A DNA stretch of 63,562 bases, counting the filler. It is 11 parts of 11 records of this genome, joined end to end, with 100 filler letters (N's around TTAATTAATTAA, not from the genome) between each part and the next. Parts side by side here need not be neighbours in the genome. Positions count along the whole stretch, not along the records: positions 59,539 to 63,562 come from SRR15195285_876; 10 more parts are not named here. One strand, given 5' to 3'. Below, piece by piece: positions 9,974 to 63,562 of the stretch (the first letter of the stretch is position 1; each line of letters opens with the position of its first letter). A program made the translations under genes and the position numbers. The notes under the pieces are model-generated. The model did no database searches, had not been told where the DNA came from, and worked only from the letters and a program-made list of their open reading frames with translations.

Positions 9974-9980
9974 CTGTGGC

Positions 9981-10080
9981 NNNNNNNNNNNNNNNNNNNN
10001 NNNNNNNNNNNNNNNNNNNNNNNNTTAATTAATTAANNNNNNNNNNNNNNNNNNNNNNNNNNNNNNNNNNNNNNNNNNNN
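9981..10080. other. Artificial contig-joining spacer (N44-TTAATTAATTAA-N44). Identical spacers at 15300-15399, 19038-19137, 25301-25400, 29522-29621, 41257-41356, 44774-44873, 51801-51900, 56317-56416 and 59439-59538
   Basis: The same 100-nt structure occurs ten times, and TTAATTAATTAA gives stops in all six frames. Confidence 0.99.
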
Positions 10081-13000: not shown

Positions 13001-14855
13001 TTTGCGTGAGTTCCTGTTCGCTAATGTTCCGCCCCAAAATTTGCGTCAGTGTACGCACTTCTGTTCGGTCGAGATGTCCGCTCTGGTCAGCGTCTACAGA
13101 CTCGAACGCCCGGCGCACCATAGCCTGCTCCTCTGTTTCTGCTGACACCGGCTCCATAGTTTCGTCTCGCTGTGACAATGCAAACTCAGGTTCAGGCTCC
13201 GGCGCAGGCTCAATCAACTGGGCGCCTGAATGGTGTTTTGTCTCCATTAAAGCTCTCGCTTTTTCTTGAGCTTCCGCGGCTTCGAGTTCCGCTTTACGCC
13301 TGGCTTCAGCTTCCTGAGCTACCAGGTTAGCCAAAGCCTCCGCTGCTTCCTGTTGCTTCTTAGCTTCCACCTGCTTCGCATCCTCGGCTTCCCTCCTCTC
13401 CCGCTGGGCAACTGCCTGCGCTTCATCTGCCTCTGCACGCTCTCGCTCAGCAGCTGTTTGTGCCGCTTCAGCCTCTGCTCTTTCTCGGGCAAGGTCTGCC
13501 TCTGCTTGAGCAATTTCATCGGCGTTTCCGCTAGCTGTTTTCTCTGTAAGCATCCGCTCAGCTTCGACCACATCTTGCCTTTCCTTGTTTGCAGCAGCCT
13601 CAGCTGCTACAGCCTCCGCCTCCTCGACTGCTGCGACTTCCTCTGCTGCTGCAGCCTCAGCTTCCTCCTTAGCAGTAGCTGCAGCCGCGGCAGCAGCTTC
13701 TTCAGACTCCTTCTGTGCGACGGCCAAAGCTTCTGCTGTGGCTTCTTCAGATGCTAATCGTTCCGCCTCCGCCTTCTCAGCAACAATGCGCGCCTCCTCC
13801 TCCTCCTCCTTGGCCGCCTGTGCGCGTGCTTGCTCTGCTGTGGCTGCCGCAGCCGCTTCAGCTACTGTTTCCTCCTCGTCCCCCTTTGCCTCGGCAGCTG
13901 GTGCTGCAAGCTCTCCTTCTTCACCCTCATCTGGTTCTTTCTCTTCTGATGCTGTTGATTCTTCTTCTGCCCTCACGGCTCCGGATGCCTCATCCTCCGC
14001 CGCAGCTCCGGCTGCGTCTCGATCGGCCTCGGCCTTAAGCGTAGCTGCCTCTTTGTCCTTAGCTATTTGTTTCTTCTTCCCTCTGCTCGATGTTGAATTG
14101 GACTTGTCTGCCTGCAGCTCACTTTCACCAGGTGGACTAGGGTCATCTTCTGCTGGTGGCGCATCTGGCTTCTTCTTCTTCTTCTTGGTCTTCTTTGCGC
14201 CTTTCTTTTCCGGAGACACTTTCGGTTGATCTTCACCGTTCGCTGCCTTCTTCCCCTTCTTTTCCTTCTTCTCTTTGGACTTTTTGCTCCCCTTTTCTCG
14301 CGTGCTCTTCTTGCCATCCGCAGCTGGTGGCGGCTCTGGCTCCGGTTCAGGCTGCGGCGCAGGCCCGGGACCGGTATCAGGCTCGGTATCAGGCTCGGGC
14401 TCGGACTTCGACGCGGACTTCGATTTGGACTTGGGCTTCGTTTCTGGGACCTCTTCTTCGTCCTGCTGGGCTTCCTTCTGGGCCTTCTTCCACTTCAGCT
14501 GCTCGAGTTTGGACATTCCCGGTGGAGGCTCAGGATCGGCTGCCGCAGACGTGCTCGATTTGGCGGGCTTGTCATTTTTGGGCTTTCGCTTGGGCTTCGC
14601 CGGTCCATCTTCCGAATCGCCATGTTCCTTTAATGGCCGCGCTTTCGCTTTTGCCTGCCTCTCAGCCTTTTTTTTCGCCTTCTGCCGCTCTAGTGCAGTC
14701 CCCGATCCGTCATTCGACGAGCTCGCCTTCGCCGTCGCCTTGACCTTGGCCTTTGTCCCTCCGCCTTCACTGCCACCAACACCCGCCTTCGCTCGCTGCG
14801 CCTTCTTCCACTTGAGCTCCTCCAGCTTTGACAGCCCCGGTGGCGGTTCTTCCAT
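10081..14855 (-). CDS. Large coiled-coil, low-complexity protein with two EF-hand pairs, 3'-partial
   Basis: ~1590-aa ORF. K/E/A-rich N-terminus, EF-hand loops DADQSGHLDRTE, DVDKSGSLDRHE and DADGSGEVNFHE plus one degenerate loop, coiled coils, and a Pro-rich tail. It ends in polyQ (CAG repeat) at the contig break. Confidence 0.8.
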
Positions 14856-15047
14856 CGAAGGATGCTCCTCAAGGGCCGAAAGCAGCAGATGGCGACGCCC
14901 TGGTCAGCGGTGACAGCAGATTGGCCATCTGCCCTCGAGACTGGTCTATGCCACAAGGCCGACCCGGCCGACGGAAGAGGCTTGGCCGACAGCAGCAGCA
15001 CAACTACGATGCTCGCCTGGTCGCTTGCTCACTATCCCTCCGGATGT

Positions 15048-15299: not shown

Positions 15300-15485
15300 N
15301 NNNNNNNNNNNNNNNNNNNNNNNNNNNNNNNNNNNNNNNNNNNTTAATTAATTAANNNNNNNNNNNNNNNNNNNNNNNNNNNNNNNNNNNNNNNNNNNNC
15401 CCCCCCCGGCCGCCGCTTCAGAGCCCTTGCCGTTGAGACGCAGCAGCCCCGCTCAGGACTTTCGTTGCGGTGGAATGGCGCGCAG

Positions 15486-19037: not shown

Positions 19038-19263
19038 NNNNNNNNNNNNNNNNNNNNNNNNNNNNNNNNNNNNNNNNNNNNTTAATTAATTAANNNNNNN
19101 NNNNNNNNNNNNNNNNNNNNNNNNNNNNNNNNNNNNNCTTTTGTCTAATCTGGGGCCTCGACTCGGGCGTGGCACTCTGTACATATGTGGATGTGCGCGC
19201 GCGGCGGCGCGCGCGACGAAAATTCGCGTTGCGTATATGCGCACGCCGCGGTGCAGTGGGTCG

Positions 19264-25146: not shown

Positions 25147-25631
25147 TCCGCGCCGGCCGTCGTCGCGCTACGTATACGTGCCGCGCGCCGGCCACACGCC
25201 CACGGCGATCGTGGCCGCGACCCTGCCGGTGCCGCTCGCCGCGGGCCTGCTCGCTGTTAAAACACCGATGACTGAGGGTAGTACCAAGCACAGTGCCCAG
25301 NNNNNNNNNNNNNNNNNNNNNNNNNNNNNNNNNNNNNNNNNNNNTTAATTAATTAANNNNNNNNNNNNNNNNNNNNNNNNNNNNNNNNNNNNNNNNNNNN
25401 CGCGAGCTTGCCCGACCGCGTCACGACGGAACGGTGATGGGGCGTTCAGCCTACACCAGACCCCATAAACTAGCCTCACCGCGCACGCTACCGCAACGTA
25501 ATGCCGCGCTTGCGCTTGTTCCGCGATGAGGGACCACTGTGCCGTCAGCTCCCTGGCTGTGCTGGATTGGGAGACCTGAACTGGAACCCAATTATAGACG
25601 CCACAATTCTGCATGAGAGTCACATCAATGT

Positions 25632-29191: not shown

Positions 29192-29863
29192 ATCGAAGTA
29201 TCGAAGTATCGTTTTCGATCAGTAGATCGATGTGCTTGAAGTTTCTCTGAAAAGAAAGCGCCGCTGGCCAAGCAACAGCGCAAGCGACAACAGCTGTCGC
29301 TGATGTGTGGACAACTCATATAGAATCTATACATGCTGATGCTATAGCTTTGGTACTAGTAGAGTGCTTCTAGTGTCACGGACCGAACGCGTACCCTCAT
29401 CGACGTCCGAGAGGTAGATCATGAGCTGGCGCCACGCGACTCCATTTTAAAACGGAGTCGCGCGGGCGACCCCTCCGTCCTCGCGACCCCTTGTAGAAAT
29501 CCCGATATATCGGGGCAACCANNNNNNNNNNNNNNNNNNNNNNNNNNNNNNNNNNNNNNNNNNNNTTAATTAATTAANNNNNNNNNNNNNNNNNNNNNNN
29601 NNNNNNNNNNNNNNNNNNNNNAAATCAGACACCCTCTGAACCTTTCCTTTTCTGATTTCTCAGTGGTTTCTCCTAATACCGTACAAGTCTGGAAAATACA
29701 GACTTCGCAGATAGTTTTAATGCCAATACCCCGGCGCTTGATTTTGCATCAATGAGAATCGACCGGTGAACGAACCAGAAAAGTTGATCATTCGCGAAGA
29801 TTCTGCAACAGCAACGCGGCTGAGGAACGAACCTCCGTCATATCCGCCCGTCGCGCTACACCT

Positions 29864-34598: not shown

Positions 34599-37500
34599 CT
34601 ACTCTGGTGTCCAGTGGCCCATCACATTCGGATCGCTGGACTTCATCTCGATGACGAATGCAAACACCCACGGCTCGAGCTTGCGGAGGCGCGAGCCGAC
34701 AGGTAGTTGTGGCTTGTAACCACCAATCACCAATTCGGTTCCCACAGAAACTGGCGTGCTGGATCGCGGTTGAATCTTGAGCCGATTTGCGAAGACTCCA
34801 TTTAGTGACCCGTGGTCCGTCACGGTGAAAGTGTTGCTTTCTGGCAAGTACGTCAGCGTAGCGTGTTTGCGAGAGACCTGGCTCTTAGGGTCAGGCAGTT
34901 GCAATGTGGTTATACTCTCATGTTCTCTTGTGGACGATGTCGCGGCTGGCATCCCCGGCGATTTCGCTACCGACATAGACTCGAACACAAACACAAACGG
35001 CCCAGAATCAGCCTCGCTCAACTGCTTCAGTTGTTTCGTTGTTTTCGGGTCTCCAAGCGACACCGTATTGCCGTCATGCAAGCACCGTGGCAACATCAGT
35101 GCCCGCTGCGCAGCGTTCGTCGGCCCAACTCGCAGCCCGTCGACGAACACGCCGTTGGTCGAGACGTCACGAAGCTTGAATGAGCCTGTCTGTTCGTCGT
35201 AGAAGATGGTGAGATGGTGCCTCGACAGCATACTGTGCTGAATGACCAGCCCAGGCGTGCCTGCAGGCAAGACCTTGCCGATTCGGAACGACCACCCGGG
35301 CGTCATCTTGCAGTCTATAGCTTCGAGTTTTAGTTCATTCGCACCCTTGAGCACACGAAGGCGGAAGGACGATGCGGGAGGTTTCGCGGTAGCGCGACCA
35401 ATTTGTAAGTTCCGATGATTCTCAGTGGTTGGTCCAGGCAGGGCAATGGTGCTGCATGGAAGAGGAGGGCCATTTGTCTGCCTGAGCAAGTACATCGTCG
35501 GCTCTCTTGCCTGCTCCTGTGCGGATATTGCCGCGTTCGCTTCTAGATTAGCTTTAGCCACGGCTGCAGCAGCCTTTTCGCGTGCGGCACTGATAGCCGC
35601 GGCCTTTGACTCCATGGCTGTGTGTGCAGACTGCGATGCTTCCAACGCAGCGTCGGCTGCAGCGACAGAGAACGCAGCATCATGTGAGCCCGGCGGTTTG
35701 AGCATCGCACTTGCGGCTGTTGTCAATGCAATGTTTGGACAAGAATGAGTGTCTTGTAGTGAGCCATCTGCTATGGCAAGAATTGGCCGGCCAACACGCG
35801 GCTCGCCTTCCTCGTGCTTCAGGGAACTGGATTGTTCCCAGCCATCACCAGGATCCGTAGCAGTTGACTCGGCATTTTGTGCAGGTTTATGATTGTCACG
35901 ATCAGCTGAGGCACCAGCGTCGTCTGTGATCACGTCGTCGTCTGCATGGTCTTCATCATCGTCGTCGCTATCCTCTGCCATGCCATCCTCAACAATAAAC
36001 TCGCGATCCTCGTCGTTCATCTCTTGCTCCGCTCCGTCGTCTTGCTCGTTCTCTGTTGCGCTGAATTCACCTTCCCCCTCATCAGACGACCCGAAACCAT
36101 CTCCACCTGCATTCTCTCCATCATCCTCTTCCTCTTCCATAGCCTCAGCAACGTCTGGCGCTATCGCCAGTATGCTGTTCTTCTGCTCAATGTACTCGGT
36201 CCAGCACTCGTGCACTTCCACGTTTTCCTGTGGCTCCCATGTGTCTTCGTCCTCTCCATAGCCTTCCCATCGCACCTTGTACTCTGTTACACCACTGGCA
36301 TTGGTACGCTCGCCCATAATTTTTTCAACCTCGTACTCAGTCTCGCCGGTCCAGTGAAGCTCCTTTTCACAAGTGGATATCTCAGACTCGCTGGAAGAGG
36401 CCACCAGAAACTGTCTGTACAATGTTGTGGCGTCCCGGGAGATTTGAGACCCTTCTTCGTTGTACCTTTCCGCATTAGATTTCAGCAGCTCTACATCACA
36501 CTTCATCTTGTCAAGAGAATAAGTAGGCTCATCAAGTCGATCTCTGATCAGAGAGAGATCAATGTAGTCTACGATCACGTCATCATATCCGGGGGCTTCA
36601 TCTTCAGAGGGATGCTCCATGAAGGCCTCCGATAGTACTCTAGATCCGAGCTTGTAGCTGACGAGGTGATCCCAAATGGCACTCAAGTCATTGACAGAAG
36701 ATTTTCGGCATGTTGTAGCCGAGACAAACAGCTGCGCACCGACTGCACGTCTTGCCATCCCAGTTGCTTCTTCTTCCTCGTCTTCCTCGTCTTCACTCTC
36801 CTGATGATCGTTTTCCTTATCCTCTTCGTCTTGGCTCTGCTCGTCAGCATCATGGTCGTCTCCAGTGGCCTCAGAAGTACTGACTGGCGCTGACTGGTCC
36901 TGAGACGACTGGGACAGGCGATTGAGCACCGTAGTCTCAGCCGTGAACGCAGCTTCGTCATCAACATCATCCTCAACATCCTCCCACATGCCGCAGTCGT
37001 CAAGAACTTCGTCTCCATAATACTCAGCAAAGTCTTCGTCATTGGACGCCGCGGCAGCTTCGGGTACGGGTTCAACACAGTCGTCAGACTGGTACTCATC
37101 GTCTGAAGGTGGTGCAGTCACTTGCTCCTCGCGTATGGCATATGAGCGCGTTGACGTATGGGCTGTCGCAGATGTTCCTTTCGGTGATTTGCAAGAGTTC
37201 ACTGTCAATCTACTGCGTTTTCGGATAGCACCACCGCCAACCCTTGTCTTGGATTGTCGTGACTGTGTGAACGAATCGAGGCAGATCGGCTCCGGGTTCG
37301 GGTTGTCAGTTGCTGGCTGGACTGCACTGTCCTTTTTCTCCATCTCCTTTATAGCAATGCGAAGTTTCTCAATGTGCTCTTCTTTCATCACTCGAAGCCC
37401 TACAACGCGCTCACCATCGTCGCAGCTGATTCGAACAATTTTTGCCTCTTCCCTGCCGCGCGCCTTTGGCAGACACGCCCAAATTCCCAATAAGCTGCCT

Positions 37501-40500
37501 GTGATGACAAAAATTTTCTTTTTTCTCCTTCCGTAGTCACAATCCCCTTCAACATGGCAATTGTGGTGAGAGCACTTTGTGTCATACTCTGTATACTCCC
37601 GAGTCCACTGTCTTTGATACGTATCATAGCTAGAGCTCTTCTCACCGTTGAAATCTGTGCGTGTACTTTTCTGCTTTATGAGACGGTGTTGTACCAGTTT
37701 CCTGAGTGGGGCTGTCAGTTGATCGGTCGACATTTCTAAAATTTTCGCGAGTTCGGTCTTCCAGATGCCTTTGCAGGATTCTGTCTGTGGTGTCTGATAG
37801 TCTCGCACTACTTGCAATACCCGTCGCTCCACAGGGTCCGTCAGCTCGCTCGGGCTCACATACCACTCTTCTGTAGGCCGTACATCGAACTGATGATCCA
37901 CTTTGAATACATTCACAACCTTATTCTTGTCCTGCAAATTGTCCTTGTGCAGGTCTGAGGATGAGATGCCTGCTGCAGGCTTGTGCATGCCGTACCACAT
38001 GCTTCTGCCTGTAACCTCGTTGCCGCCAGCCCGTGCAATCACAAGGCTGCACTGACGGATCGATGACCCCCGTGGATGCCCGAACGGGGGGTTTTTGCTT
38101 CGCAAGAACATCACGTTGCGATTGTCACTCTTCGCTTTTTGGTATCGTTGGAGCGCAGTCTCCCAGCTGATCCCACGGTCCATCAGCACCGTCACCAAGT
38201 TAACTGTGCCCTTCGAGATCGGGTCCGTCCATAGTACCTCTGTTGATGCTACGCTCATACTCTCGCCTGTAACATCTGTAATTCCTTCACTGTATTGATT
38301 GTTTTGCTTTGCAACGACGATCACACGGTCCAGCGTGTCGAGCAAGTGCCGAAAGATGTTCTTCTGAAGCTCCAGTTGCACGCCAAACAGGCGGTTCAGG
38401 AATGTGTTGATCTTCATCTTGGATTTCGCGCCAATCACGCCAGCGGCTGTCAGTTCAACTATGGCCTCCGTCGCGAACTCTTCTTGTGAGTATTCGTCGG
38501 TGATGAATTCAGACGCAATAGGAAAACGTGAGGGACGGTCACTTGCCCAAGCCTGGATGTTCGCTAGCATGTGATTGAGAGCATCATGGCCCCATTTTGT
38601 GTCGAGCACAAAGTCTGACATATCTTGGGCACCGCCCGCGCGGCGGTCACCTTGTGTGAGCGCACCGAGTTGCTCAAGGCGAGAGGCAACAGCACTGGCA
38701 AATCGCCACTCCCCGCCGATGGTGGTAATCAAGAGCTTGAAGATAGGAGACGACTTCTGGTTTGAGCGATGGGAGCGACCAAGTTGTTGCACGGCTTTAT
38801 CCGCGCTCCAAGGCAACTCGAGCGTGATATGCAGCCGCCGCTTCTGGTTTTTTACGCGGCGGTCCGCGTGAAGGGAAATTCCAGTAGACGCCGCATCCGA
38901 GATAATAGCAACAAGCTTTCTTCCACTTTGAAAATTCTTGCGCTCGGTGATGTTGATGGAGTCATCGATCTCTCCGCCCCTGCTTTTGGCTTTGAAACGC
39001 TTCTCGTGCACCAACATGGTTTGCCCATTGCTGCCGCGCCCGGCCCTTGGTCGGCGCACTGTCCGTGTGCTGCGACCAGTCATCTCGGCGACCTTTTCCG
39101 GCCCGCCCAGCATATCAATGATCGCATCGAGGGGATTTGGGGGCCACTCGAGGGTGTCGATCTCAGCGAGTATTTCCTTCTGTACCTTGCGCAGATGCGG
39201 AATCGCCGGCGCGCCGCATTCAAACTCGTTTCCGATCTTGTAGATGTCCTTCATCACATGCTGGATGAAGAGCTTCGAAGTCGACAAAAAGTCGCATCCA
39301 TCGAATCCATGTTCTGCGATATGTGCATCTGTTCTGGCTTCGCCGGTGGACTGTAGACCTATCACACAACACTGATCATTTGCGAGCGCTTCCTTGGCGA
39401 GACGAACGACCGCTGGCACTTTCGCGCCCAAGCACAATTGGTTGAAAAATCTCTGATGCGTTCCCCAGAACGTTCCCATTACCATCTGGAGGCTCTTCTG
39501 CTCTGTGGGAGTGAGAGAGACGCGTATGGATATCTGGTCCTTCATGATCTCAAACTCCTTCTTCATCCGAGCCCACAATCTGGCACAGTGGTTGTAAAAC
39601 GCTCGATATTCAGGTGAGAGGTCTTCGTTGACGACGCTGAATTCGGCGCCGCGGTAGCTAAGAGTACGAGCGATGAACATGCCGCGACCCTTCATGTCCA
39701 TGGCCACCATTTCCATTCCGCCAGTGCCGCGGCTGTTGATCTGCCTGATAAAGTCTGCGGCGTCATTGAAAGACGTTCCAGTCCCCCACAGGCCGAGGCG
39801 ATCCATGTACGACATATGAGAGAGCTCCGATGCGCCGGTGGCCGAAACGTAGACGACACGCGCACGCGGGAGCCGCCGCTGCACCTCTGCGACATGGCGT
39901 GCAGTCCGCGACGACTTCTCTTCCTTGCCTACCACTAGGTTTTTTGCCTAACGACAAGGACGCGCAAAACATCAGCAAGGGCTCAGAGCAGATCGGTGAA
40001 GACAAAAAAGGGGAGCAACGAGGCACATAGACACCTTATGGCACTCGTCGAAGACAAGGCATCCGTCGAAGTTCTTCCCACACCACTCGGCAAGCTGGTC
40101 GATTCGTTTCATGCGCGAGCCGGAGATGAGACATGAGTACGTGGAAAACAACACGCCGCTGTCTGTGCCATTCTTTTTGTTCAGCAGCGGCTTCAACTCC
40201 GTGTACGGCATGTCCGGGAGATTGATGATCGGTACTTTGCTAGCGCCGATGTCGGCGAAGTCGCGCGATGCATCGGCCGCAAGGTCGGCGCTCGCGCTGA
40301 ACCATACGCTCTTCTTGCCTGTGCGCGTGTACACGCAATCAAGGGCGATGAGAAATTGGTGGCCGACACACGCAGCGCGGCGGCAGGACGACTCACGGCC
40401 GCGACGGAAGTTCTCGTAAATGATGCCAGAGATCTGGCGGCCTTTGCCGATGCCTGCGCCATCGCCGAGCAGGAAGCCCGCGCGCTCGTTGCGGCCGTTC

Positions 40501-41054
40501 GGCAGCGTGATGTGGTGGCGCATCGACGCGTACACGATTGACTCCAGCTGCAGGCCGGAAATGAGGCCCTTCTCAATCAGCTCCCGCGGCAGCCCAAGAC
40601 GGTAGGCCGGGTCAGGCGGCGGTACCGCGCTCATCGAGGAGGTTTCGACGGTCTGATCAGGATGCCGGCGCCCAAGTTTGACCTTCGAGGGCTCGTAGTC
40701 GGCAAATGTATCGTACTCCTCGCCCTGCCCGACTCCCTCATCCTCCTGTGCTGCGGCGAGCTCTTCCTCTTTCTGCCGCGCCTGCTTCTCCGCATCCGCC
40801 TGCCGCTGCTTCTGTGCTGCCGTCTGGACCGCCTGCGCGGCGGCCGCCGCCTCGAGCTGCGCAAGCCCCCATTTGGAGACAGACTGCGGCAGGTGTGACA
40901 TGACACCTTCTCCCGCGCCGAGCAACCGCCGGTACAGCTGCGCTCTTCCCGCGTTTGGCGCTGGGCCTGAGGCAAGGGCGAAAGCGAGATGCTCCTGCTC
41001 CTGGCTTCCGGCTCCGACGCGTCGACGCTCTGCCCGGTCGCTCCACCCAGACAC
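34599..41054 (-). CDS. SBNO: Strawberry notch (SBNO)-family SF2 helicase-like protein with C-terminal winged-helix, bromodomain, chromodomain and two FHA domains
   Basis: HPDQTVETSSMSAVPPP, LQLESIVYA, GFLLGDGAGIGKGR, FSTYSCL, FDECHK|AKNL, YVSATGA, VIGLQSTGEA, GGPEKVAEMTGR and ISDAASTGISLHADRRVKNQKRRLHITLELPWSADKAVQQLGRSHRSNQ. There are at least two introns near the 5' end. The start is uncertain (ATG at 40901 or further upstream). Confidence 0.93.
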
Positions 41055-41356
41055 TAGGTCTAAGTCCTCACGTAGCTGGACGAGCCCGCTGGTGGGCAGC
41101 GCGCTGGCCGGCGTGGCTGAGCGCGGTGCACCGTTGGACCCTGTTGTTCCTTCCTGGCAGTTCCTCCTCCTCTAGAGACTGAGCGCTAAGTCCCCTGCAA
41201 TACCCGTGCTGGCCAGCTGCTACTGACCTCCTCCTCCTGCTGCTGCTCCTGCTGCTNNNNNNNNNNNNNNNNNNNNNNNNNNNNNNNNNNNNNNNNNNNN
41301 TTAATTAATTAANNNNNNNNNNNNNNNNNNNNNNNNNNNNNNNNNNNNNNNNNNNN

Positions 41357-44505: not shown

Positions 44506-45346
44506 GCGACGAAGAGGAAGAGAGAGGACGGGTTTGAATGTAGGTGTGTTCTGCCCTAAGGACACCGGGGCTAGGGCAAATCAGTGTAGTAGGGTAGAAT
44601 GAATGCAGTCAGTTGTACATTTGTGGTGGTGGTTCGTCCTCGATGGGCTGGAAAGGTGAGCTAAGCCCTGAGGATAGAGAAGGGTATCGGTCATTTAGTA
44701 TGCAAGAATGACACAGGCACCGTACAGCGGGCCGACACTAGATTACTGCGACTTTCGGTTGCTGTGGCCGGAANNNNNNNNNNNNNNNNNNNNNNNNNNN
44801 NNNNNNNNNNNNNNNNNTTAATTAATTAANNNNNNNNNNNNNNNNNNNNNNNNNNNNNNNNNNNNNNNNNNNNCCCTGTTTTTTGCACACTTTTTTGCGC
44901 GCGGTTGAATTTAATTTCATGCGCGGCGCGGACCTGTATTTCAGACGGTCTCACAATACTTATAGTACGAGCTGTACTTACAACGCGTCCCCGCCAAATT
45001 GCTCGCGAATTGCGTATGCTCGGGCCTTGCTTCGATGCTTCCTTCGTCGATTCGCCCTTCGTGTGCCGCATTGCGTGCGCCGGCCGCCGGCGATGCTCAT
45101 GTTCACCCGACGGCTCGCTTCCACAGCGCAGCACCTTGGGTGTGGGCCCACGCGCGCCGCCTTCGTTGCTGCCTCTGCAGGTGTGGCCAGCCAGCAGCAT
45201 GGATGGTGATGGCGGGATCCCTGCCATGCACGCAAGCAAGGCATCTGTGTATGTGTGCACATGCCCAGATTGGCTCATTTGCATCCATTTCTTGCCGATA
45301 CCCAGGGGATGGCGATGGAGGCAGCGGCGGCAACCCTCGGGACGAG

Positions 45347-51775: not shown

Positions 51776-52085
51776 GCGCCGCTCAACGCCGACTGCGACG
51801 NNNNNNNNNNNNNNNNNNNNNNNNNNNNNNNNNNNNNNNNNNNNTTAATTAATTAANNNNNNNNNNNNNNNNNNNNNNNNNNNNNNNNNNNNNNNNNNNN
51901 CCGCGCCACGGCGCGCTTTTTGCAAAATGCTGAGTCGGCAATTTCAACAAATTTGCGATGCATGGTGGGCCGCGCATGCATTCGATGCATCGGCGCGCTT
52001 TAGCGTAGGTGTGCGCGCGGTCGTCTGCGCGGTGAGCGCGCCGCGCGCGGCGAGGTCGCCGCGCGGCGCCGGTATCTGCAAGGCA

Positions 52086-53494: not shown

Positions 53495-56027
53495 TTAGAG
53501 TTCTTGTTTGCCAACTATACTACCTGCACCAGCAGACCCAGCTTCGCAAGCTGCGGGTGTGCGAAACTTGAACTCGTATACACAAGTCTCTGTCTCACGA
53601 ACATCCTCGAGCTTATTGTCAACGCCCTGACGCAGCACAAGAGTGGAGCGACAGTCATGACCAAACACAGCCTACCGCTAGCAACGTTCACGTGCAACGC
53701 GAGAGATCCAAGGCACGGCACTCACGCAGCTGACGAGTACCGTCGCCGAACGCTGTGGCCCGTTCCAGCACGATTGTCCACCGGTAAACTTGAAAATGTA
53801 CCCGTCCGTTGTCTTGGTGTATTCATTCCAATTTCCCAAACTTGTGTAGTCCTGCTCCACCTTGTCGTATGGCTTCATTTTGTACCTGGAGCCATTTGCA
53901 AATGGCTAAATACTGCTGAAAGGATAGCACAGAGAGGCATTGCAGTATGGATCATCACACACGTGTACTGCCCAAATGTTTCCTCGAATGATTCTCCCTT
54001 GAGAGACCAGAACACGTTCCCAGGACCCCAATCGCCATTCACGATGTCCTCGAGAGTTTTGATGTCATCGTCGAGCGTTGACACTGCAAGCCGCCAGTAG
54101 GTTAGTGGCAGATCAGCGCAGCAACTGACAGAAGACAAATTGTTCGAACGGGTGCCGACGTACCCGTGCTCTCTGCGTCCGACAGGTCAGAGCGCGCGGC
54201 TTCCGCTTCTGGCTTCTTGTAGTCCTCAGGGGCAAGTCCGTCGCCCACAAGAGACCGGAGGCAGTCCGCCACTGTCCGTTGCTCCGGCGCCACAAAAGGA
54301 GCCACCACTTCTCCTGGGTCCTCCACATCATCGTCGCCGCTGGGTCCGTTCTCTCCATCGTTCTCGGCAGCGACAAATGCAGCACGCGCCTCTTCTTCGG
54401 TCGCAGCATTACCATCTGCATCAACATCCGCTGGCAGCGTCTCCTCTTGCTGCTCTACCTCAGAGCCCTCGTCGAGACCAAGCGCCTGCCGTCTTGCCGC
54501 TGCAGCTGCACTCAGAGCTGGCGAGGGAGTCTTCTCCTTAGCAGCCTTCGTCTGCACATCAAACCCTTTTTTCAAGTTGAGTAGCGCAGCGTACTCATCT
54601 GAAGCTAGCTCCTTGGAGCTGCCTGCGTCAGTGATACCCTGCTTCACCTCAACCTCAACAGTCGCCCATTTTGCAAGGGCCGCGCCCATGCGCTGCTTTG
54701 CCTTTGACGTAGCCTCAGTGACATCAGGGCTGTGGGCCGTGCCGTCATCAGCAAGGTTGGAGAGATTCTCCATCGCTTCGCGACCAGCGCTGACGACTTC
54801 GCTTGTTTGAGAGAGCGCCGCCTCGGCTTTGAGAACCGCCTCTTTTGCTCCTTTGAGGCCGGCGCTAGCGACATCTATCGCTGCAGCCATCTTCGCGCCA
54901 GCTTCTATCAGCTGCTTCTCGCCTGCAGGTTCTCCCAACCTGGCGCTGGATGCCGCACCCTGTCCGTCGCGCAGTGCCGCAGTTGCCGTGGTGCGCCCAG
55001 TCTCGCAGTCGGCGGCCCCTTGCTCTGCGTTTTTGACTGCTTCCGCAGCCACCTGCTTGGCAGTGTCGCATGCTGTCTCTAGCTGTGTCGCTATGTTGCC
55101 TGCGGCTGTTGCGGCATCCTGTTGCAAGAGCTCCTCGGTTGGGTCGATTGGAGCCTGGTTGTTTGCCTCTCGCAAAGAAGAGACTAGGTCGACCAGTGTG
55201 TCTGGACCGTCACGTACCAGCGCGACCACCAGCACGCGCAGCGCATCAGCCTGCAAAGATTCCAGGCCGAGCCCCACGGCGAGCTCCAGGTCGTGCATGC
55301 GCGAGGCCTGTGCGGCCTCCTTCTTCTCGAAGAGCTCCATCTCTGCTTTGCGGGAGCGGAGAGACGCGAGCGTGCCGTCAAGCGTAGCCTTCTCCAAACG
55401 CTTAGTCTCCAGCTCTGCGGACTTGGTGCTCATGTGCGCCGCACTAGCCGCTAGCATGCTGGCCTTAGCTGCCAATCCTGCTTTGAGAACGGCCGCTTTC
55501 TCCACAGCATCTTTGTTGGCCTCCGCGGCCTCCGCAGCACAGGTATTGGCACATGGCGACGCTGTTCCCTTCTCGTCACTGCCATCGCAGCAGTCGCACA
55601 CGAAGTCGTTCACCCGGGATGAAGGAATGCGCTTTCCCTCATGCCCTACATTCAAACAGAAGAAGCCAGCGGACGCGGACTCCGGCGGAGCAACGCCGCT
55701 GCAAGCTGCTGTGCCGGGCTCGTCCGACCCATCGTCGCAGTCGCAGTAGTCGTCATTCAGCTGCTCGTACGGCAGCACCTGCACGCCATCGAGGCAGTGA
55801 AAGTGCCGCCCGTCCTTGATGGCATACCTGCTCCGGCGAATCAAAATCCTCTTGAGCAGCGGTCAAAACCGTACAAAATGCCAATCCAAAACCGATCAGT
55901 GATCAAGAGCAAATCGTCGGAGTACATACGCCTCCGCGAGCTTCGGGACGACGCCCAGCAGGCTCGGGTCGGCCGGACCCCGGGTCGCCGCCGCCACCAC
56001 GCTCACCATCGCAGAGAGCGCCAGCAT
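53495..56027 (-). CDS. PRKCSH: Glucosidase II beta subunit (PRKCSH/GTB1), multi-exon
   Basis: Signal peptide. LNDDYCDCDDGSDEPGTAAC and SSRVNDFVCDCCDGSDE. Long coiled coil. MRH domain GGQSCWNGPQRSATV..C..ETETCVYEFKFRTPAAC. ER-retrieval-like KQEL*. Confidence 0.93.
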
Positions 56028-56416
56028 GTCGTACGCTACTGCACCGGGAGCGGCCGTACCGGTGTACACGCGCGTACCGTGCGCCATTATATATCGCCGG
56101 CGCGCGGTCCTATCGCGTACGTGCAATCGATGAAACTTCGCATTTACGCTCAATTTAGAAAATGGTTCGCTATGGAATTGAATACGAGATTGTAGCACTA
56201 TATTCGGGAACCTCGAGCAGGCAGCCCGCGATCACCCGACCGTTCGGCCACGACCTCATATACGATACTGTACTAGATCTAGTATACCCATAGCCCATAT
56301 ATGATCGGTGCCAATGNNNNNNNNNNNNNNNNNNNNNNNNNNNNNNNNNNNNNNNNNNNNTTAATTAATTAANNNNNNNNNNNNNNNNNNNNNNNNNNNN
56401 NNNNNNNNNNNNNNNN

Positions 56417-57449: not shown

Positions 57450-59249
57450 CTAGAGCAAGACTTCGATCAGGCTGAAGACGTCATCTTCCCCACCCAACGA
57501 ACTCAACGTAAGCATCTGATTTGGCTGTACTATTGTCACGTTGACCTCCGCGGTGCGCCACGCCCGGCCACCCCTCGTGTCCTGCTTGCGAACTACCAGC
57601 GCCTGCTTCCCACCATAGGCCAGTGCCCACTGTCCCACACCCTGGTCGTAATACACGACCCGCACCAGTGCCACCCTACCTGCAGCAGCCGCGGCAAAAG
57701 CTGGATCCAGTTCGAGTGTGATCTCAGTCTTGCCGGACGCGTGCTCCAACCCACGAGCGAAGCGCCCAAACGATTCATTCACCGGCCCCAGCTGCCACCA
57801 GCCGATAGAGGTGTTGAGTGGGTCCAGCTGCCGGAGGTGTTGCTGGAAGTTGCCATCATAGCACTGCCAGCACACGTCAATCAGCGCGTTGGCCTTCTTC
57901 TGGTGAACGCTGTTTTTGGCACTGGCGGCCCCCTTCTGACCAAGGCGTGCGCCACGAGCGTCGAAAGCCGCGGCAATGTTCACCATTCGGTTTGCGTTTG
58001 CAAACTGAGAAGGGTTCTCCGGGTCATCGACAGGACCGAACTGCGCGATTGGAAAACGCAGGGTGTCCGCCGTATCCAAGCTGTCACGGAAGGACAAAAA
58101 AGCCGCCTGCGCGGTGGCCGGGTTCTTCTGGCCAGCGTGCCGGTTGAAGAACGTCATGGTCGGTGCGAAACTGCTATTCCCTAGCCAGCCCGCGTACAGG
58201 TTCAAGGTGTCGAGTCCAAACGTGAGCGCATTTTCTGTCAGCGCCTGCAAGCTCCACCAGGGTGAGTGTGCCCAGTTGCCGTATGTACCCGTCGACAAGT
58301 CAGGGTCCGGCTCCACCGCCAGCTCGCCACGGCTGCGAGCGTAGCTGCCGTCGGGCTGTGGACGGAGCATCAGCGGGCTCTCCGCCTCGAAGAGGGCTCG
58401 ATCGCCATTCCCCTGATACCAATGACTAATCTTGCCCTCCTTGACGGCCGCACCGTGCATTCCCTTGTCGGCAGCGCGCTGCAGGAACCAGCCATTGTCC
58501 TCCTGACCTGAGAAACCATCGTGTAGGTTGGCTATCACAGGAATCCCAGTAGGGAGGAATGCGTCGATGTACATGTCAGCGACTGCGCGCGAGTAATTCA
58601 TCCAAGCTGCGGCACCCATCGTTTGGTTGGTCGTGCAGCCTGGCACGGAGGCATCCTCACACTTCACGACCCCGTTCCACGGCCGATTGTCGCCAGTGAT
58701 TCCAGCCACCGCCTGCACGGCCCAGATGCTCTGCTTGACTTTGGGTGGCAGCTCGGTGACGTGGCGGGCGAACTCATTAATAACCTTCTGCCACGCACCC
58801 TGGAACGCGGAGTCCAGATAGTTCGGTGCCGGCTCCAGCCTACCTGACCGTCCACCACGATGGAAGAGGACGGGCGTGGATACGTTCGCCATCCAGGAAG
58901 GCATTGGGTTGGCCCCGTCGAAAATGTAGAGCACAGGGTTCAGCTGCAATCCATGTTCGGCGGCGAGGGTAAGGTTCTTGTCGAACTCCTCCCAGTTGAA
59001 GATGCCCTTCTCCGGCTCGAGCTTGTTCCAGTAGAGGACATGAAACCACCCACGCAGCCACGGCGGTGGCGCGTGCAGCACCTGCTCGAAGCACTCGTTG
59101 ACGCGGAAGCCGGCAGGATGCGCCCCCTGGTAGGCGGCATAGCCACATGCCCAGCTCCAGATGCCGGCGTGTTGTTCGTGTTGCTGATGTGCGAGCGCCT
59201 GCTGCGTTCCGACAGCGGCTAGCAGCGATGCCAGCACGCGTCCCAGCAT
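57450..59249 (-). CDS. Secreted glycoside hydrolase-like protein (GH42/GH35-type TIM barrel + beta-sandwich), intronless
   Basis: Signal-peptide-like MLGRVLASLLAAVGTQQALA. YWNKLEPEKGIFNWEEFD..L..A, PSWM, PNYLDSAFQ and GITGD. C-terminal VRVVYYDQGVGQWALAY..WRTAEV. Confidence 0.75.
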   Translation of the reverse strand: MLGRVLASLLAAVGTQQALAHQQHEQHAGIWSWACGYAAYQGAHPAGFRVNECFEQVLHAPPPWLRGWFHVLYWNKLEPEKGIFNWEEFDKNLTLAAEHGLQLNPVLYIFDGANPMPSWMANVSTPVLFHRGGRSGRLEPAPNYLDSAFQGAWQKVINEFARHVTELPPKVKQSIWAVQAVAGITGDNRPWNGVVKCEDASVPGCTTNQTMGAAAWMNYSRAVADMYIDAFLPTGIPVIANLHDGFSGQEDNGWFLQRAADKGMHGAAVKEGKISHWYQGNGDRALFEAESPLMLRPQPDGSYARSRGELAVEPDPDLSTGTYGNWAHSPWWSLQALTENALTFGLDTLNLYAGWLGNSSFAPTMTFFNRHAGQKNPATAQAAFLSFRDSLDTADTLRFPIAQFGPVDDPENPSQFANANRMVNIAAAFDARGARLGQKGAASAKNSVHQKKANALIDVCWQCYDGNFQQHLRQLDPLNTSIGWWQLGPVNESFGRFARGLEHASGKTEITLELDPAFAAAAAGRVALVRVVYYDQGVGQWALAYGGKQALVVRKQDTRGGRAWRTAEVNVTIVQPNQMLTLSSLGGEDDVFSLIEVLL

Positions 59250-59538
59250 GTCCAACAGCGACGCGCCCCCCCCCCCGCCGTCCACCACGCTCGACCCGCC
59301 GCGATCGATGCTACGAGCTACGTGCCTGTCGTCCCGCCGCGATGACCGCGGGCATATCTAGCTAGGATACGCATGCAGTAAATTCTGTTGTTTCTCCGAA
59401 ACGCACCTGGGTGATTGGCGCAGTTTGGATCCGATGGANNNNNNNNNNNNNNNNNNNNNNNNNNNNNNNNNNNNNNNNNNNNTTAATTAATTAANNNNNN
59501 NNNNNNNNNNNNNNNNNNNNNNNNNNNNNNNNNNNNNN

Positions 59539-62500
59539 ACTGAGCTGGTGGCTGGACAACCTGATAGAGCAAGTATATCAGGTGCAAAAATACGCCAGTC
59601 TTCCCGATCTGTGGGCGCCCGACTAGTGCGAACCGACTCGGATTGTCTCGCCAGATTGCAGGATCATCTGGCTTGTAGTCTGCATTTCCTTCCCCTGCAT
59701 CCCAATTTGTCCGATATGTCTCTGTGTCAAAGTCATCCAGTGGATGATAGTACACAAGATTTGTCTCTCCTCGTCGCAACTCGCTGTGGCCGGGTGGCTG
59801 CCGAATATCTTTTTCCGGTACCTTGACCATCTTTTTAACCCTATCAGGTTGTCTTCTCAGAACTGGGTTTCCGGTGGACTTTCGCCCCTGTTTAAATGTT
59901 TTGATCATCACAGAACTAACGAGCATATACGGCATCTGCTTACGCTCGTAGTCATCTGGCTCCCCATCATTCTCCGTGCGACAGGTAGCACAGTTGTTTG
60001 GGTGCTTGTCAACCCACCGGCACGCACGACCAAGGTCTTGTTCAGCAGGTGCTCGAATGATGGCTTTCGTTCCTGACCCATAGTACTTGAGACGGAGGTC
60101 GTAGTACTTCATGCTTCGTGGAAATGTGTCACCCATCTTCCCTTTCTGGCACAAAATCAGAATGCAAGGTAGACCTTCTAGCTCCTCGTAGGCATCCACG
60201 CAGAGCTCCTGGATCGTTTGAGGTTGTGTTAAGTGAGCGTGTGGGTCTTCAATGCGGATGGCCCAGCTAGCCAGCCGTTTTTTGAGAACATCGGACTTGA
60301 TGAGGTCCTTTAGGCTCGTATTGCGCTGGTCTGTGTCAAGAATTGTTGCGAACGAGTCTTGAAGACCCAGTTCCTTTTGTGCTTTCAGAATGCCAGCGTG
60401 CAAGACTGCTCCGTTTGGTTTACTATCAACCCGAATGAGGATCATCGATCCCTTACCAGACGGAGCAGGTTTAAGTAAATCAGCGATCATGTTGTCAGTG
60501 AATTTTGACGTCCACTTCTCAATTTTTGTTTTGGTATCCGCAGATAGCTTCCCGAATGCATTTCGATGAATAATTGCATGTTTGATGAGTGCAGACTTGT
60601 ATTGTTGCAGCATGGTCTCGACACGCTTATCGGCATCAGATTTCCCGTCGGCATCCCGCCAAAGCCGGTCGAAATCATCGTCGCTGGTCATCCTGCCTTC
60701 ACCCCACTGCCCAATGTGATCCTTATTGCAATAGTCCGCGATCCCGTAATACCTTTTCGACGCAGAGTGCTGTGCCGAGCTCATTGTGCAAACATTTCGC
60801 GCAGGAATTTGCGAGTTTCTCGTAAAGATGCAATATGGCGTAGCGCTGACGAACAAGGTAAGTACGTTGACATTTGCTGGCTCGCGCAGCTCTTGACCAT
60901 TCACAATCTTGCTGAACTCACCCGTTGCCGTCATGTCGTAGTGTGCCTCGTCCTGAATGATCAGAAATAGAGTATCTGGATTGTTTTGAATCTCATTTTG
61001 TAGTGCCTTTACCTTGGCAGCCTGATCTTCGCCACCAGCGGATGGGCGGATTATGAATCTGCTGTCGCTGGTGGCTTTTCCACTCGCATCTTTCAAGTCT
61101 CGCTGGACATCTGCGAAGAAGCTATCGTCTCCAATATACCTGCTGTACTCTGCGAGAAACGGTGCAAGTCGAACTACAGTCTGCTTTGCCAAAGAATTTG
61201 GCTTCGGCAGGAAGATGTAAAAGGCCAACCTGGAGAACGCACGCCCGCGCTGCTGTATTGCATCCTGTATGTGAACGACCATCTTCGCAGCCAACTCCTT
61301 TGCGACATCCTGCTGTGTACCCTTGACATTTCCTCCGTCAGGCACACTTTCTATTTCGATTGATGCCCGAGGTACACCTTTAGGCTGCACGGCCGTATCC
61401 ACAATCGGGCATGTCCTAAGAAGGTTTCGAACCTCTTCTAGATCTAGTACACCTGCATCGTCGTCAACCGGTGACTCACTATCCAGCTCGCTCGATTCGT
61501 CCTCACCTTCGTCACTGCTCTCGTCCTCGCTGTCTTCCTCAATCTTGTTCGGCGTCAACTTGCGCTTCTTTCTTACAGCAACCTGATCCACTGCCTGCTC
61601 TTTCTGCAAGTCGAGGTCTAGAGTCAAACCGTCTTTATCATCGTCTGTCGATACATACCCATGCAGATCCGTTTCCTCTGTGTGGGCAGCAATTCCTGGT
61701 CCTGCGGGCGTAGCTTCCCTGGCCACACCCATGGCTTCCCGCGCCTCCTGTTCATTATCCTCCTCCTCCGACTCCGACTCCGAGTCGGTGCCTCGGTCCA
61801 TTCCGGCATAGCTGATACGGTCCAAAGTACGTAGCCGACTGCTAGCACGGCCCTCACTATCTGCGGCCGTTGGGGCGCGAGCTTGGACGGGTACCTCGCT
61901 TGTTGGCTCCAGCTCCAACTTCCTGCGCTTGTGTTGATCATCATTAGAGTCTACGCCTGGTCCACCGACAGCGTCTTTCCTCTGGCGCTTGCGCTCCTGA
62001 GATTGATTCCTTGTGCTCTTGCTGCTCTTGTTCCTGTTCTCCTTCTCCTTCTCCTTCTTCTTCTTCTTCTTCTTCAATCGCCGTGGCCGCTCTGCGTCAG
62101 TACTCCTTGTCGAGCCGTCATTGTGTACAGCCTGCGGAGGCGCAACTGCATCCGTTCCTGTCAGCCCGACGACAGCTGCTGCGGTGGGCGTATGCCCTGA
62201 GTCCATTTTAAGGTCGCCGTCCATAATACTGACTTTTTTTTCCGTGGTCCCGTCGTCCTGAGGCGAGAGAGTGCATTGCGGTGACTCAGCGACTTGATAG
62301 CAACTTTGGCCAGTGGGATTTCATGGGTGAGCGCACGAATCGAATGTCAATCGTCTCGCCGTCCGATTGGACTACCTCGCCATGATACCATTTGTAACCC
62401 CCCGGCTCATCAATCTCATACTTCAGTTGCACTCTTTGACCCACTGTCACGGTGGCAGCGTCACGGGCAGGTGCCGCGCCAACAGAGTCCTCAGTCACTG

Positions 62501-62996
62501 GGTCGTTGCTTCGTGAATCGCAACCGACATCCTCAGCGTCGGACAGGCCCTCCGCGACTTCGTTCGGGACTCTGTACTCTCCATCGCCGTCTACCGTCTC
62601 GGACCGGCGCGCGGAGCCGTTGCCTGCTGTCGCCGCTGATGCGGCTCTTCCGCGCAAACCCTTTCGCAGCGTACGCTTTGCTCCCTGATCCTCTGACCCC
62701 CGCACGCTTGGTCGCAGTGCGTTTGTGCTTTGTTGTACGCTCTCTATTACGTTGATGCACTCTTCTTCAAATGTTTCTTGGGTTCCATTTTCGTATTGCA
62801 CAGTGACTTTGCGCACAACATATTCATCTGGATCCGTAATCTCGACAACCTTCCCTTCCGAAAAACCTTCTTGAGGATCTGCTCCGGGGTCAATCAGCAC
62901 TTTATCGCCGATGTGCAGCGGGTCCCCTGGTTGCAACTGGTCCTCGGGTCTGTAAATGCGGTGGCTGGGTGCCATCGGCGCCTTCGCCCCATCCAT
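59539..62996 (-). CDS. GREB1-family circularly permuted SF2 helicase-like protein with two N-terminal Tudor-like domains, 3'-partial
   Basis: Exon 62996-62337 joins 62257-59539 through a 79-nt phase-0 intron. Motifs are PDTLFLIIQDEAH, LFVSATPY, EGLPCILILCQKGKMGDTFPRSMKYYDLR, EQDLGRACR, and a downstream Walker A, RFALVGRPQIGKTGVFLHLI. Confidence 0.82.
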
Positions 62997-63329
62997 ACCG
63001 CCTGGCACTGTCGCAGGCGCACGCTACGACACGCCGCGCACGCACGGCACGGCGCGGCGCTTAGAGCGCGCGGCGCCGCGGCGCCGCCGCGACCGGCGCG
63101 GCGCAAGGGCTGCTCTCGGTGCTCTGTACTAGATCTAGTACCCCAATGGCTTTTTCGCCAGACCCCACTCGTGAACATGACTCACGATCCGCAATCACTC
63201 GAATCACCGAACGTTGACGATTTCGACTGCCGGGATGCACCGGGCCAGGGGCCACCGGCCGGCGGCCGCCGCGGTTCTTGCTTTTCCCTTGTTGCCTTGG
63301 TTGCCTTGGGTGTTCCGCCGACGGCTCTC

Positions 63330-63447
63330 CGCCCAGCCTGTCCGGCTACTACAGGTACTGTACTGTGTACACTGCAGTGTAGCTACGCCCAGCCTGTCCG
63401 GCTACTGTACTGTGTGTACACACGGTACTGTACTGTACTGTGTGTAC
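63330..63447 (+). repeat. Two-copy repeat (cgcccagcctgtccggctact) with TACTG microrepeats
   Basis: The 21-bp unit occurs at about 63330 and 63386, each copy followed by tactg/tgtgtac runs. Confidence 0.7.
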
Positions 63448-63562
63448 GGTGGCTACGCATGGCGACGACCATTGCCATTGTGGACGACAGTGGTGATGAG
63501 AGCGACTTCGAGGAGGACGAGCCAAAGCCACAGGCTGGCAGCAGCAGCAGCAGCAGCAGCAG

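Follow-up and report, generated by a model that had tools for sequence, protein, structure and literature searches.

The TET/JBP-associated glycosyltransferase (TAGT) and the domain architecture of GREB1 were defined by Iyer et al. 2013 (NAR 41:7635), as cited in parts of Shin 2021 (PMC7968844), and the architecture is repeated in portions of a 2018 review (PMC6163654). In the relevant passages of Shin 2021, the cpSF2 domain of human GREB1 is described as “circularly permuted catalytically inactive,” GREB1-dependent addition of O-linked N-acetylglucosamine (O-GlcNAcylation) to estrogen receptor alpha (ER-alpha) is reported along with an in vitro activity that is weak and donor-unspecific, GREB1-like proteins of several protist groups are documented and proposed to glycosylate proteins too, and the other characterised TAGT members are stated to act on hydroxymethylpyrimidines in DNA. 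Here, we describe a truncated GREB1-like gene, located at the end of a 63,562-nucleotide stretch of DNA (hereafter, the window), that encodes a circularly permuted superfamily 2 (SF2) helicase domain with all motor motifs in place. We read it, with a probability of about 0.8, as the 5′ part only of a nuclear, intron-bearing gene of the GREB1 family from a marine unicellular eukaryote.

The window (1-63562) comprises 11 contigs joined with N44-TTAATTAATTAA-N44 spacers at 9981-10080, 15300-15399, 19038-19137, 25301-25400, 29522-29621, 41257-41356, 44774-44873, 51801-51900, 56317-56416, and 59439-59538; because the joins are artificial, open reading frames (ORFs) on either side of a spacer do not form a genomic neighbourhood. 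The GREB1-like gene lies on the minus strand of the last contig, SRR15195285_876 (59539-63562; 4,024 bases), and pieces of 100-250 bases recur with zero differences in marine or seawater metagenomes, on contigs from four runs that belong to four studies. Its helicase portion is a 927-codon frame (62320-59540) that runs open into the spacer and matches Pfam PF20692 (cpSF2-GREB1), described as the circularly permuted SF2 helicase of GREB1 proteins, scoring 247.5 bits where the cut-off is 26.2 (E 4.5e-73). The match falls into two stretches, the better of which places residues 335-794 on profile positions 6-453 of 716. This profile search bears out the membership in the GREB1 cpSF2 family that an earlier reading of the DNA, the original prediction, had proposed from the letters alone.

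In the 927-residue frame, motif II is at residue 457, motif III at 492, a motif V-like block at 728, and motif VI at 760, with Walker A following at 901. The original prediction had put the first four ahead of Walker A, and each was recovered on the minus strand where it had been placed. No Walker A precedes the DEAH box, again as predicted: strict and loose patterns each found a single site in this frame, GRPQIGKT, and neither found any in the upstream 245-residue frame. The permuted order is real, and the match to PF20692 is far beyond chance. Only 19 codons separate the Walker A motif from the contig end, so the statement that the gene stops just after this motif also stands. The features of the helicase portion are listed below, with strand and helix numbers taken from the structural model described after them.

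59540-62257, minus strand: exon 2, still open where the contig stops; a disordered linker, lysine-rich and acidic, leads into the cpSF2 ATPase
59540-61318, minus strand: circularly permuted SF2 ATPase domain (PF20692), which the contig end truncates
60941-60961, minus strand: motif II / Walker B, IIQDEAH, at the end of model strand 120-127
60839-60847, minus strand: motif III, SAT, at the end of model strand 156-162
60092-60139, minus strand: motif V-like block, with KMGDTFP at 60139-60119 and YYDLR at 60106-60092, conserved family-wide
60017-60043, minus strand: motif VI, EQDLGRACR, which fits QxxGRxxR, its QxxGR in model helix 426-434
59597-59620, minus strand: Walker A / motif I, GRPQIGKT, placed C-terminally in the domain, between model strand 566-571 and helix 577-592
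59439-59538, no strand: artificial spacer, N44-TTAATTAATTAA-N44, the contig boundary that cuts the gene

The structure of the 597-residue domain (61330-59540) was modelled with AlphaFold2 (AF2) from an alignment of 39 sequences, yielding a mean predicted local distance difference test score (pLDDT) of 87.1 and a predicted template modelling score (pTM) of 0.89. At its C-terminus the modelled chain has strand 566-571, then the P-loop, then helix 577-592; this unit opens a normal RecA-like lobe and comes last here, so the permutation would be visible in the predicted fold as well. When the model was compared with 48,161 representative chains using VIA-align, SF2 motors came out on top, and 45 chains had a Z of at least 8. 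The best match was the FANCM translocase (Z 10.8, root-mean-square deviation 4.4, 322 aligned residues), accompanied by INO80 (Z 10.5), a spliceosomal DEAH helicase (Z 10.4), and SNF2h and HrpB (both Z 10.2). Foldseek gave low global template modelling scores (0.15-0.32), all to P-loop ATPases and mainly to SF2 helicases. Conventional SF2 motors (FANCM, INO80/SNF2h, DEAH/RHA, and RIG-I-like) share the two-RecA-lobe fold and the catalytic motifs with this domain (Z 10.8-9.9 over 300-322 residues), but here the P-loop strand and helix come last rather than first and identity is 10-13%. Given that the top VIA-align matches are tied across DNA translocases and RNA helicases, the fold is compatible with either substrate and does not decide between them. 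From its intact motifs, the ATPase is predicted to be catalytically active, which we consider likely.

To place these motifs in the context of the family, a set of 90 homologues of near-query length, including the identical record P0003, and 55 longer proteins was assembled; PF20692 is present in all 90 and all 55. Motif states were counted in 144 homologues (89 of near-query length, without P0003, and the 55 longer ones) after alignment with hmmalign to a profile that jackhmmer built from the query domain, as follows.

Motif II, DExH: intact in 112 of 120 aligned homologues; 24 unaligned
Motif III, [ST]AT: intact in 115 of 122 aligned; 22 unaligned
Motif VI, QxxGR: intact in 131 of 137 aligned; 7 unaligned
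Motif I, GK[ST]: intact in 116 of 116 aligned; 28 unaligned

The eight motif II exceptions are P0046 (KEIN), P0055 (DDCH), a starfish GREB1L (DQAH), and five vertebrate GREB1 sequences (DHAH). The degenerate DHAH of vertebrate GREB1 had been stated correctly in the original prediction, being present in all five of these sequences, which also carry TSF and QELGL. In all six deuterostome GREB1/GREB1L proteins, motifs II, III (TSF or SGL), and VI (QELGL) are lost together, whereas GREB1-like paralogues of corals, annelids, and shrimp, on another branch of the tree, keep their motor motifs. The suggestion that an intact DEAH box sets this copy apart must accordingly be withdrawn, six of the eight exceptions being deuterostome GREB1/GREB1L. 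As judged from these alignments, an intact motor is the family default outside deuterostome GREB1, and the present copy appears ordinary rather than a “reactivated” exception. The N-terminal accessories are highly diverse across the family and include OTU, EF-hand, WD40, bromodomain/zf-CW, ankyrin, ZZ, caspase, kinase, and methyltransferase domains.

A phylogenetic tree was constructed with FastTree (LG+gamma, midpoint root) from 124 of 145 sequences and 545 columns, after removal of 21 rows whose coverage of the profile was below 60%. The protist and metagenome clade of the query and the six deuterostome GREB1/GREB1L proteins form a branch of 48 tips (Shimodaira-Hasegawa-like support 0.976), in which the deuterostome sequences group together with support 1.0 and have P0034 as sister (0.91). 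Corals, annelids, crustaceans, Naegleria, Willaertia, stramenopiles, Guillardia, and Trebouxia fall on a second branch (67 tips, 0.994), and a third group consists of nine methyltransferase-fused tips (0.952). The closest neighbours of the query are P0021, P0027, and P0030 (0.897), and monophyly of the 41-tip protist clade that excludes the GREB1/P0034 group is unsupported (0.243).

Among known systems, the closest are protist and invertebrate GREB1-like proteins that carry PF20692 and PF20691 (TAGT), such as the complete 1,155-residue P0004; two records, P0055 and P0124, are named “GREB1-like protein [Hondaea fermentalgiana].” These proteins and the query have the permuted SF2 domain in common at 30-43% identity, with all ATPase motifs intact and with the shared blocks TLFxIxxDEAH, PCILIL..KGKMGDTFP..YYDLR, EQDLGR, and GRPQIGKTG. 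The query differs from them in having two candidate SH3-like barrels that lack detectable relatives and in that no TAGT is visible. Animal GREB1/GREB1L share the cpSF2 family and the HD.AH, EQ.LG, and Y.DLR motif flavour, but have DHAH or DQAH, TSF or SGL, and QELGL (the arginine lost) where the query has DEAH, SAT, and QDLGR; animal GREB1 has ~1,950 residues and is reportedly mainly cytoplasmic. The GREB1-specific N-terminal and Zn-ribbon families PF15782, PF20688, and PF20267 matched neither frame, E values as high as 1 being considered, and are present in all six deuterostome records (P0095, P0101, P0102, P0108, P0114, and P0122). Phage TAGT enzymes and the kinetoplastid base-J glucosyltransferase, the namesakes of the PF20691 domain that relatives of this protein carry, are by comparison stand-alone enzymes that lack a cpSF2 motor and are partnered with a TET/JBP hydroxylase.

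The part of the protein beyond the contig end can be approached through related records. P0003 (COSAG02_NODE_4840_length_4918) is 100% identical to the query and continues for 237 residues past the contig of the window before it, too, is cut; its tail tracks the relatives through a Cys-rich block and ends ~100 residues before the start of the TAGT in P0006, P0067, P0049, and P0004. When short proteins were searched with the TAGT part of P0049, the single match was P0151 (COSAG02_NODE_20756_length_816), a 194-residue TAGT fragment (Pfam E 4.6e-12) with the same assembly prefix as P0003. This fragment shows 51% identity with both P0049 and P0006, the best two matches of the C-terminal part of P0003, and 43% with P0067, and it retains the DD motif common to 82 of 92 aligned TAGT segments, including that of vertebrate GREB1. 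Across the homologue set, PF20691 was found in 31 of the 90 near-length and 46 of the 55 longer proteins, and many of the homologues without it come from contigs of 2-5 kb. The C-terminal TAGT expected in the original prediction, a domain that would lie outside the window, is thus supported by the P0003 extension, by the TAGT of the four relatives, and by P0151, and the full protein very probably ends in a TAGT-type GT-A glycosyltransferase that was lost at the contig end. A metagenome scan with P0003 gave 572 pattern matches, 0 of which were confirmed by tblastn.

The Cys-rich block itself falls in the interval between helicase and TAGT, at P0003 residues ~985-1065 and hence beyond the window. 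It contains several cysteines and the pattern CGKYGDPK...LW.H...HPDEHKF, is common to P0049, P0006, and P0067, and may represent a small metal-binding linker module; the CGKYGDPK linker of the extended record is in this respect shared with protist GREB1-like relatives.

Upstream of the helicase frame, a 245-codon open stretch in another frame contains an ATG at 62996-62994; its unspliced public gene call is P0148 (236 residues). Excision of 62336-62258 joins the two frames into 1,126 codons with zero stops. In a Strawberry-notch-type helicase gene on another contig of the window, an 87-nt (nucleotide) GT-AG intron (40034-39948) separates the halves of an AAA_34 domain that lie in the flanking frames; this continuity of the Pfam profile indicates that the organism has short introns of such a kind. 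There is therefore a good case, argued from sequence, that a 79-nt intron fuses a barrel-encoding exon to the helicase exon. The proposed N-terminal features, including the charged linker at the start of exon 2, are as follows.

62337-62996, minus strand: proposed exon 1, which has 220 codons counted from its ATG (62996-62994) and a second in-frame ATG at 62975
62258-62336, minus strand: proposed 79-nt phase-0 GT-AG intron, GTGCGC...pyrimidine tract...CAG
62742-62927, minus strand: barrel 1 candidate, SH3/KOW/Tudor-like and beta-rich, exon-1 residues ~24-85, from sub-threshold matches
62207-62450, minus strand: barrel 2 candidate, which the intron interrupts, exon-1 residues ~183-220 plus ~17 exon-2 codons
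62027-62083, minus strand: lysine-rich tract resembling a nuclear localization signal, a role suggested by composition
61472-61783, minus strand: region with two acidic Ser/Glu/Asp tracts (61783-61745 and 61540-61472)

The lysine-rich and acidic tracts are present as originally predicted, and further basic clusters occur at 61930-61919 and 61573-61559. The pair of tandem Tudor domains claimed for the N-terminus remains putative. For barrel 1, the Pfam matches are all sub-threshold: Myosin_N SH3-like (E 0.0027 with an 82-residue piece; 17.9 bits against a cut-off of 27), DUF5641, and DUF4537. Barrel 2 matched Agenet, likewise below threshold (E 0.023-0.052), and with 15.6 bits, where 27 marks the cut-off, this was the best result among the Tudor, Agenet, chromo, PWWP, and MBT profiles, none of which scored above its cut-off. 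A phmmer search of exon 1 against PDB sequences returned nothing below E 0.098, with the KOW region of RfaH matching barrel 1 at E 1.9, and the Atlas feature scores of 0.83-0.86 that link barrel 1 to the Tudor_5, Agenet, and Tudor_3 clusters are below the trust level and serve as leads only. An exhaustive HMMER search of the upstream frame against 1.84 billion representatives gave three matches, namely the frame itself, P0149, and one weak match; P0149, a Mind-bomb SH3-repeat protein, matches at barrel 2, over residues 174-204 (E 9.3e-9 for 10 stretches taken in sum). Modelled by AF2 from the single sequence, exon 1 had a pLDDT of 42.6, too poor for a fold search, with strands at 63-86 (pLDDT <50) and 188-219 (pLDDT 55-62). 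The two segments are best called candidate SH3-like barrels, possibly the one new feature of this protein, albeit unproven.

Taken as a whole, the protein would probably work as follows: the barrels and basic tracts would bring it to the nucleus or to chromatin, the SF2 motor would bind or track nucleic acid with ATP, and the motor would position the C-terminal glycosyltransferase on its acceptor. A link to chromatin is plausible by analogy with P0032, which belongs to the same clade and has a bromodomain and zf-CW preceding its cpSF2. Coupling of an SF2 ATPase to a base-J enzyme is known from kinetoplastid JBP2. For the acceptor, a hydroxymethylated pyrimidine in DNA, modified by phage-TAGT/base-J chemistry, is put forward tentatively and at somewhat short of even odds; the intact motor favours it, as does the kind of chemistry that TAGT enzymes at large carry out. 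A serine or threonine in a nuclear protein, the type of target reported for human GREB1, is a possible acceptor that we would not expect to prove right but take seriously, favoured because it reflects the sole biochemistry of the family and the grouping with GREB1. The smaller remainder of the probability goes to acceptors of some other kind. No dioxygenase was detected in Pfam scans of window ORFs (five on other contigs, plus others), a result that did not include an aimed genome-wide TET/JBP search.

Several points weigh against this composite picture. Intact motifs alone are no proof of ATPase activity, and human GREB1, the only member assayed, reportedly glycosylates protein and not DNA. 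Tblastn with the tails of four relatives against all 11 contigs detected no TAGT in the window (best E 0.16). P0151 may belong to a paralogue, as its coverage label differs from that of P0003 and no overlap joins them; moreover, 59 of the 90 near-length and 9 of the 55 longer homologues have no TAGT, so members without this domain may exist, and P0032 is one record without it, though from a 4.7-kb contig. The intron has no transcript support, the metagenome pieces of 100-250 bases missing both the junction and the contig end. The barrels have no family-level match among the 1.84 billion representatives, and the likeness of barrel 1 to barrel 2 (score 32) was equalled by 266 of 2,000 shuffles.

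The alternative that survives best is a protein of the human GREB1 type, that is, a protein O-GlcNAc-type transferase whose helicase serves as a nucleic-acid-binding or partner-binding scaffold, with no DNA modification involved. In its favour, the only biochemistry of the family is GREB1-dependent O-GlcNAcylation of ER-alpha, the authors of Shin 2021 propose, in the part of that paper concerned, protein glycosylation for protist GREB1-like proteins as well, and deuterostome GREB1 groups with the clade of the query in the 48-tip branch. However, all the ATPase motifs that GREB1 proper has lost are intact here, which argues for a working motor, and the passages of Shin 2021 cited above give DNA hydroxymethylpyrimidines as the target of other characterised TAGT members and describe the in vitro activity of GREB1 as weak and not donor-specific. 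We hold this alternative to be a serious one, with the odds nonetheless leaning against it. It is unlikely that the locus instead comprises two genes, a 236-residue barrel protein (P0148) upstream of a GREB1-like gene (P0003) whose helicase would lack readers. Both public gene calls keep the frames separate, splicing is without transcript support, and no homologue has such barrels ahead of cpSF2, but the record names look like the output of an intron-blind ORF caller, the gap of ~60 nt from the stop of the upstream frame to the first Met of the helicase frame is too small for a terminator and a promoter, the two frames are linked by a clean 79-nt GT-AG phase-0 intron, and splicing extends the strand pattern of barrel 2, which would otherwise run out into an unstructured tail. 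A stand-alone reader and cpSF2 ATPase that lacks a glycosyltransferase, with P0151 derived from a paralogue, is highly improbable: it would fit the PF20691-less majority of near-length (59/90) and minority of longer (9/55) members, the TAGT-less P0032 (bromodomain, zf-CW, and cpSF2; 1,178 residues), and the missing physical link between P0151 and this gene, but most TAGT-less matches are from 2-5 kb contigs and probably cut, all four close relatives that extend beyond the Cys-rich block enter a TAGT, and the best matches of P0151 include the two proteins nearest to the C-terminal part of the query.

Returning to the preferred reading of a truncated GREB1-family gene, its boldest extension is that the full product is a single polypeptide of reader, motor, and transferase that tracks DNA with ATP and writes a sugar on a modified DNA base or a chromatin protein, that this was the ancestral job of the family, and that its vertebrate member GREB1 later lost the motor; we regard this extension as a long shot. 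The claim that the system is “undescribed” was too strong, since Pfam models exist for both domains and protist GREB1-like proteins are in print, as sections of Shin 2021 attest. On an active helicase in protist GREB1-like proteins, literature searches yielded nothing beyond Shin 2021 and one review.

On the same contig, a divergent neighbour gene begins at 63459-63560 on the plus strand, ~460 bases upstream of the GREB1-like ATG, opening with an acidic stretch and reaching a poly-Ser (GCT/CAG-type) repeat at the contig end; the metagenome contigs that match the GREB1-like gene diverge most in the intergenic and poly-Ser repeat part. A 635-residue frame at 57450-59357 (minus strand) was considered as a continuation of the gene and rejected, as it lies beyond the artificial spacer; it has a weak, sub-cut-off match to GH42 beta-galactosidase (E 0.0051). 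Elsewhere in the window, the Strawberry-notch-type SF2 helicase gene (34602-41171, minus strand) encodes AAA_34 and Helicase_C_4 followed by a C-terminal bromodomain, chromodomain, and FHA domain, and is the second fusion of a helicase with chromatin readers in the window; its intron at 40034-39948 directly follows the DECH motif. A 1,607-residue frame (10083-14903, minus strand) has an EF-hand pair (residues 687-749) as its sole Pfam match and does not match cpSF2; EF-hands also occur in the GREB1-like relatives P0012 and P0014. The 1,643-residue frame at 5051-9979 (minus strand) contains a single AAA ATPase domain (E 2.7e-5) and is otherwise unassigned, and a glucosidase II beta-subunit-like protein (PRKCSH-like, E 3.8e-34) is encoded at 54105-55862 (minus strand).

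The gene described here is a truncated, ordinary member of an already catalogued protist branch of the GREB1 family, and the intact motifs of non-animal members may already be described in Iyer 2013 or in the supplement of Shin 2021. If the reader-guided writer proved true, it would constitute a eukaryotic, non-kinetoplastid DNA or chromatin glycosylation mark. GREB1 is relevant to cancer, and little biochemistry has been done on it; protist and invertebrate relatives that retain all ATPase motifs would show the original purpose of the module that is a “dead” helicase in GREB1. The more useful lead is perhaps the pattern at the level of the family, namely the loss of motor motifs in six deuterostome GREB1/GREB1L proteins that stand beside the protist clade.

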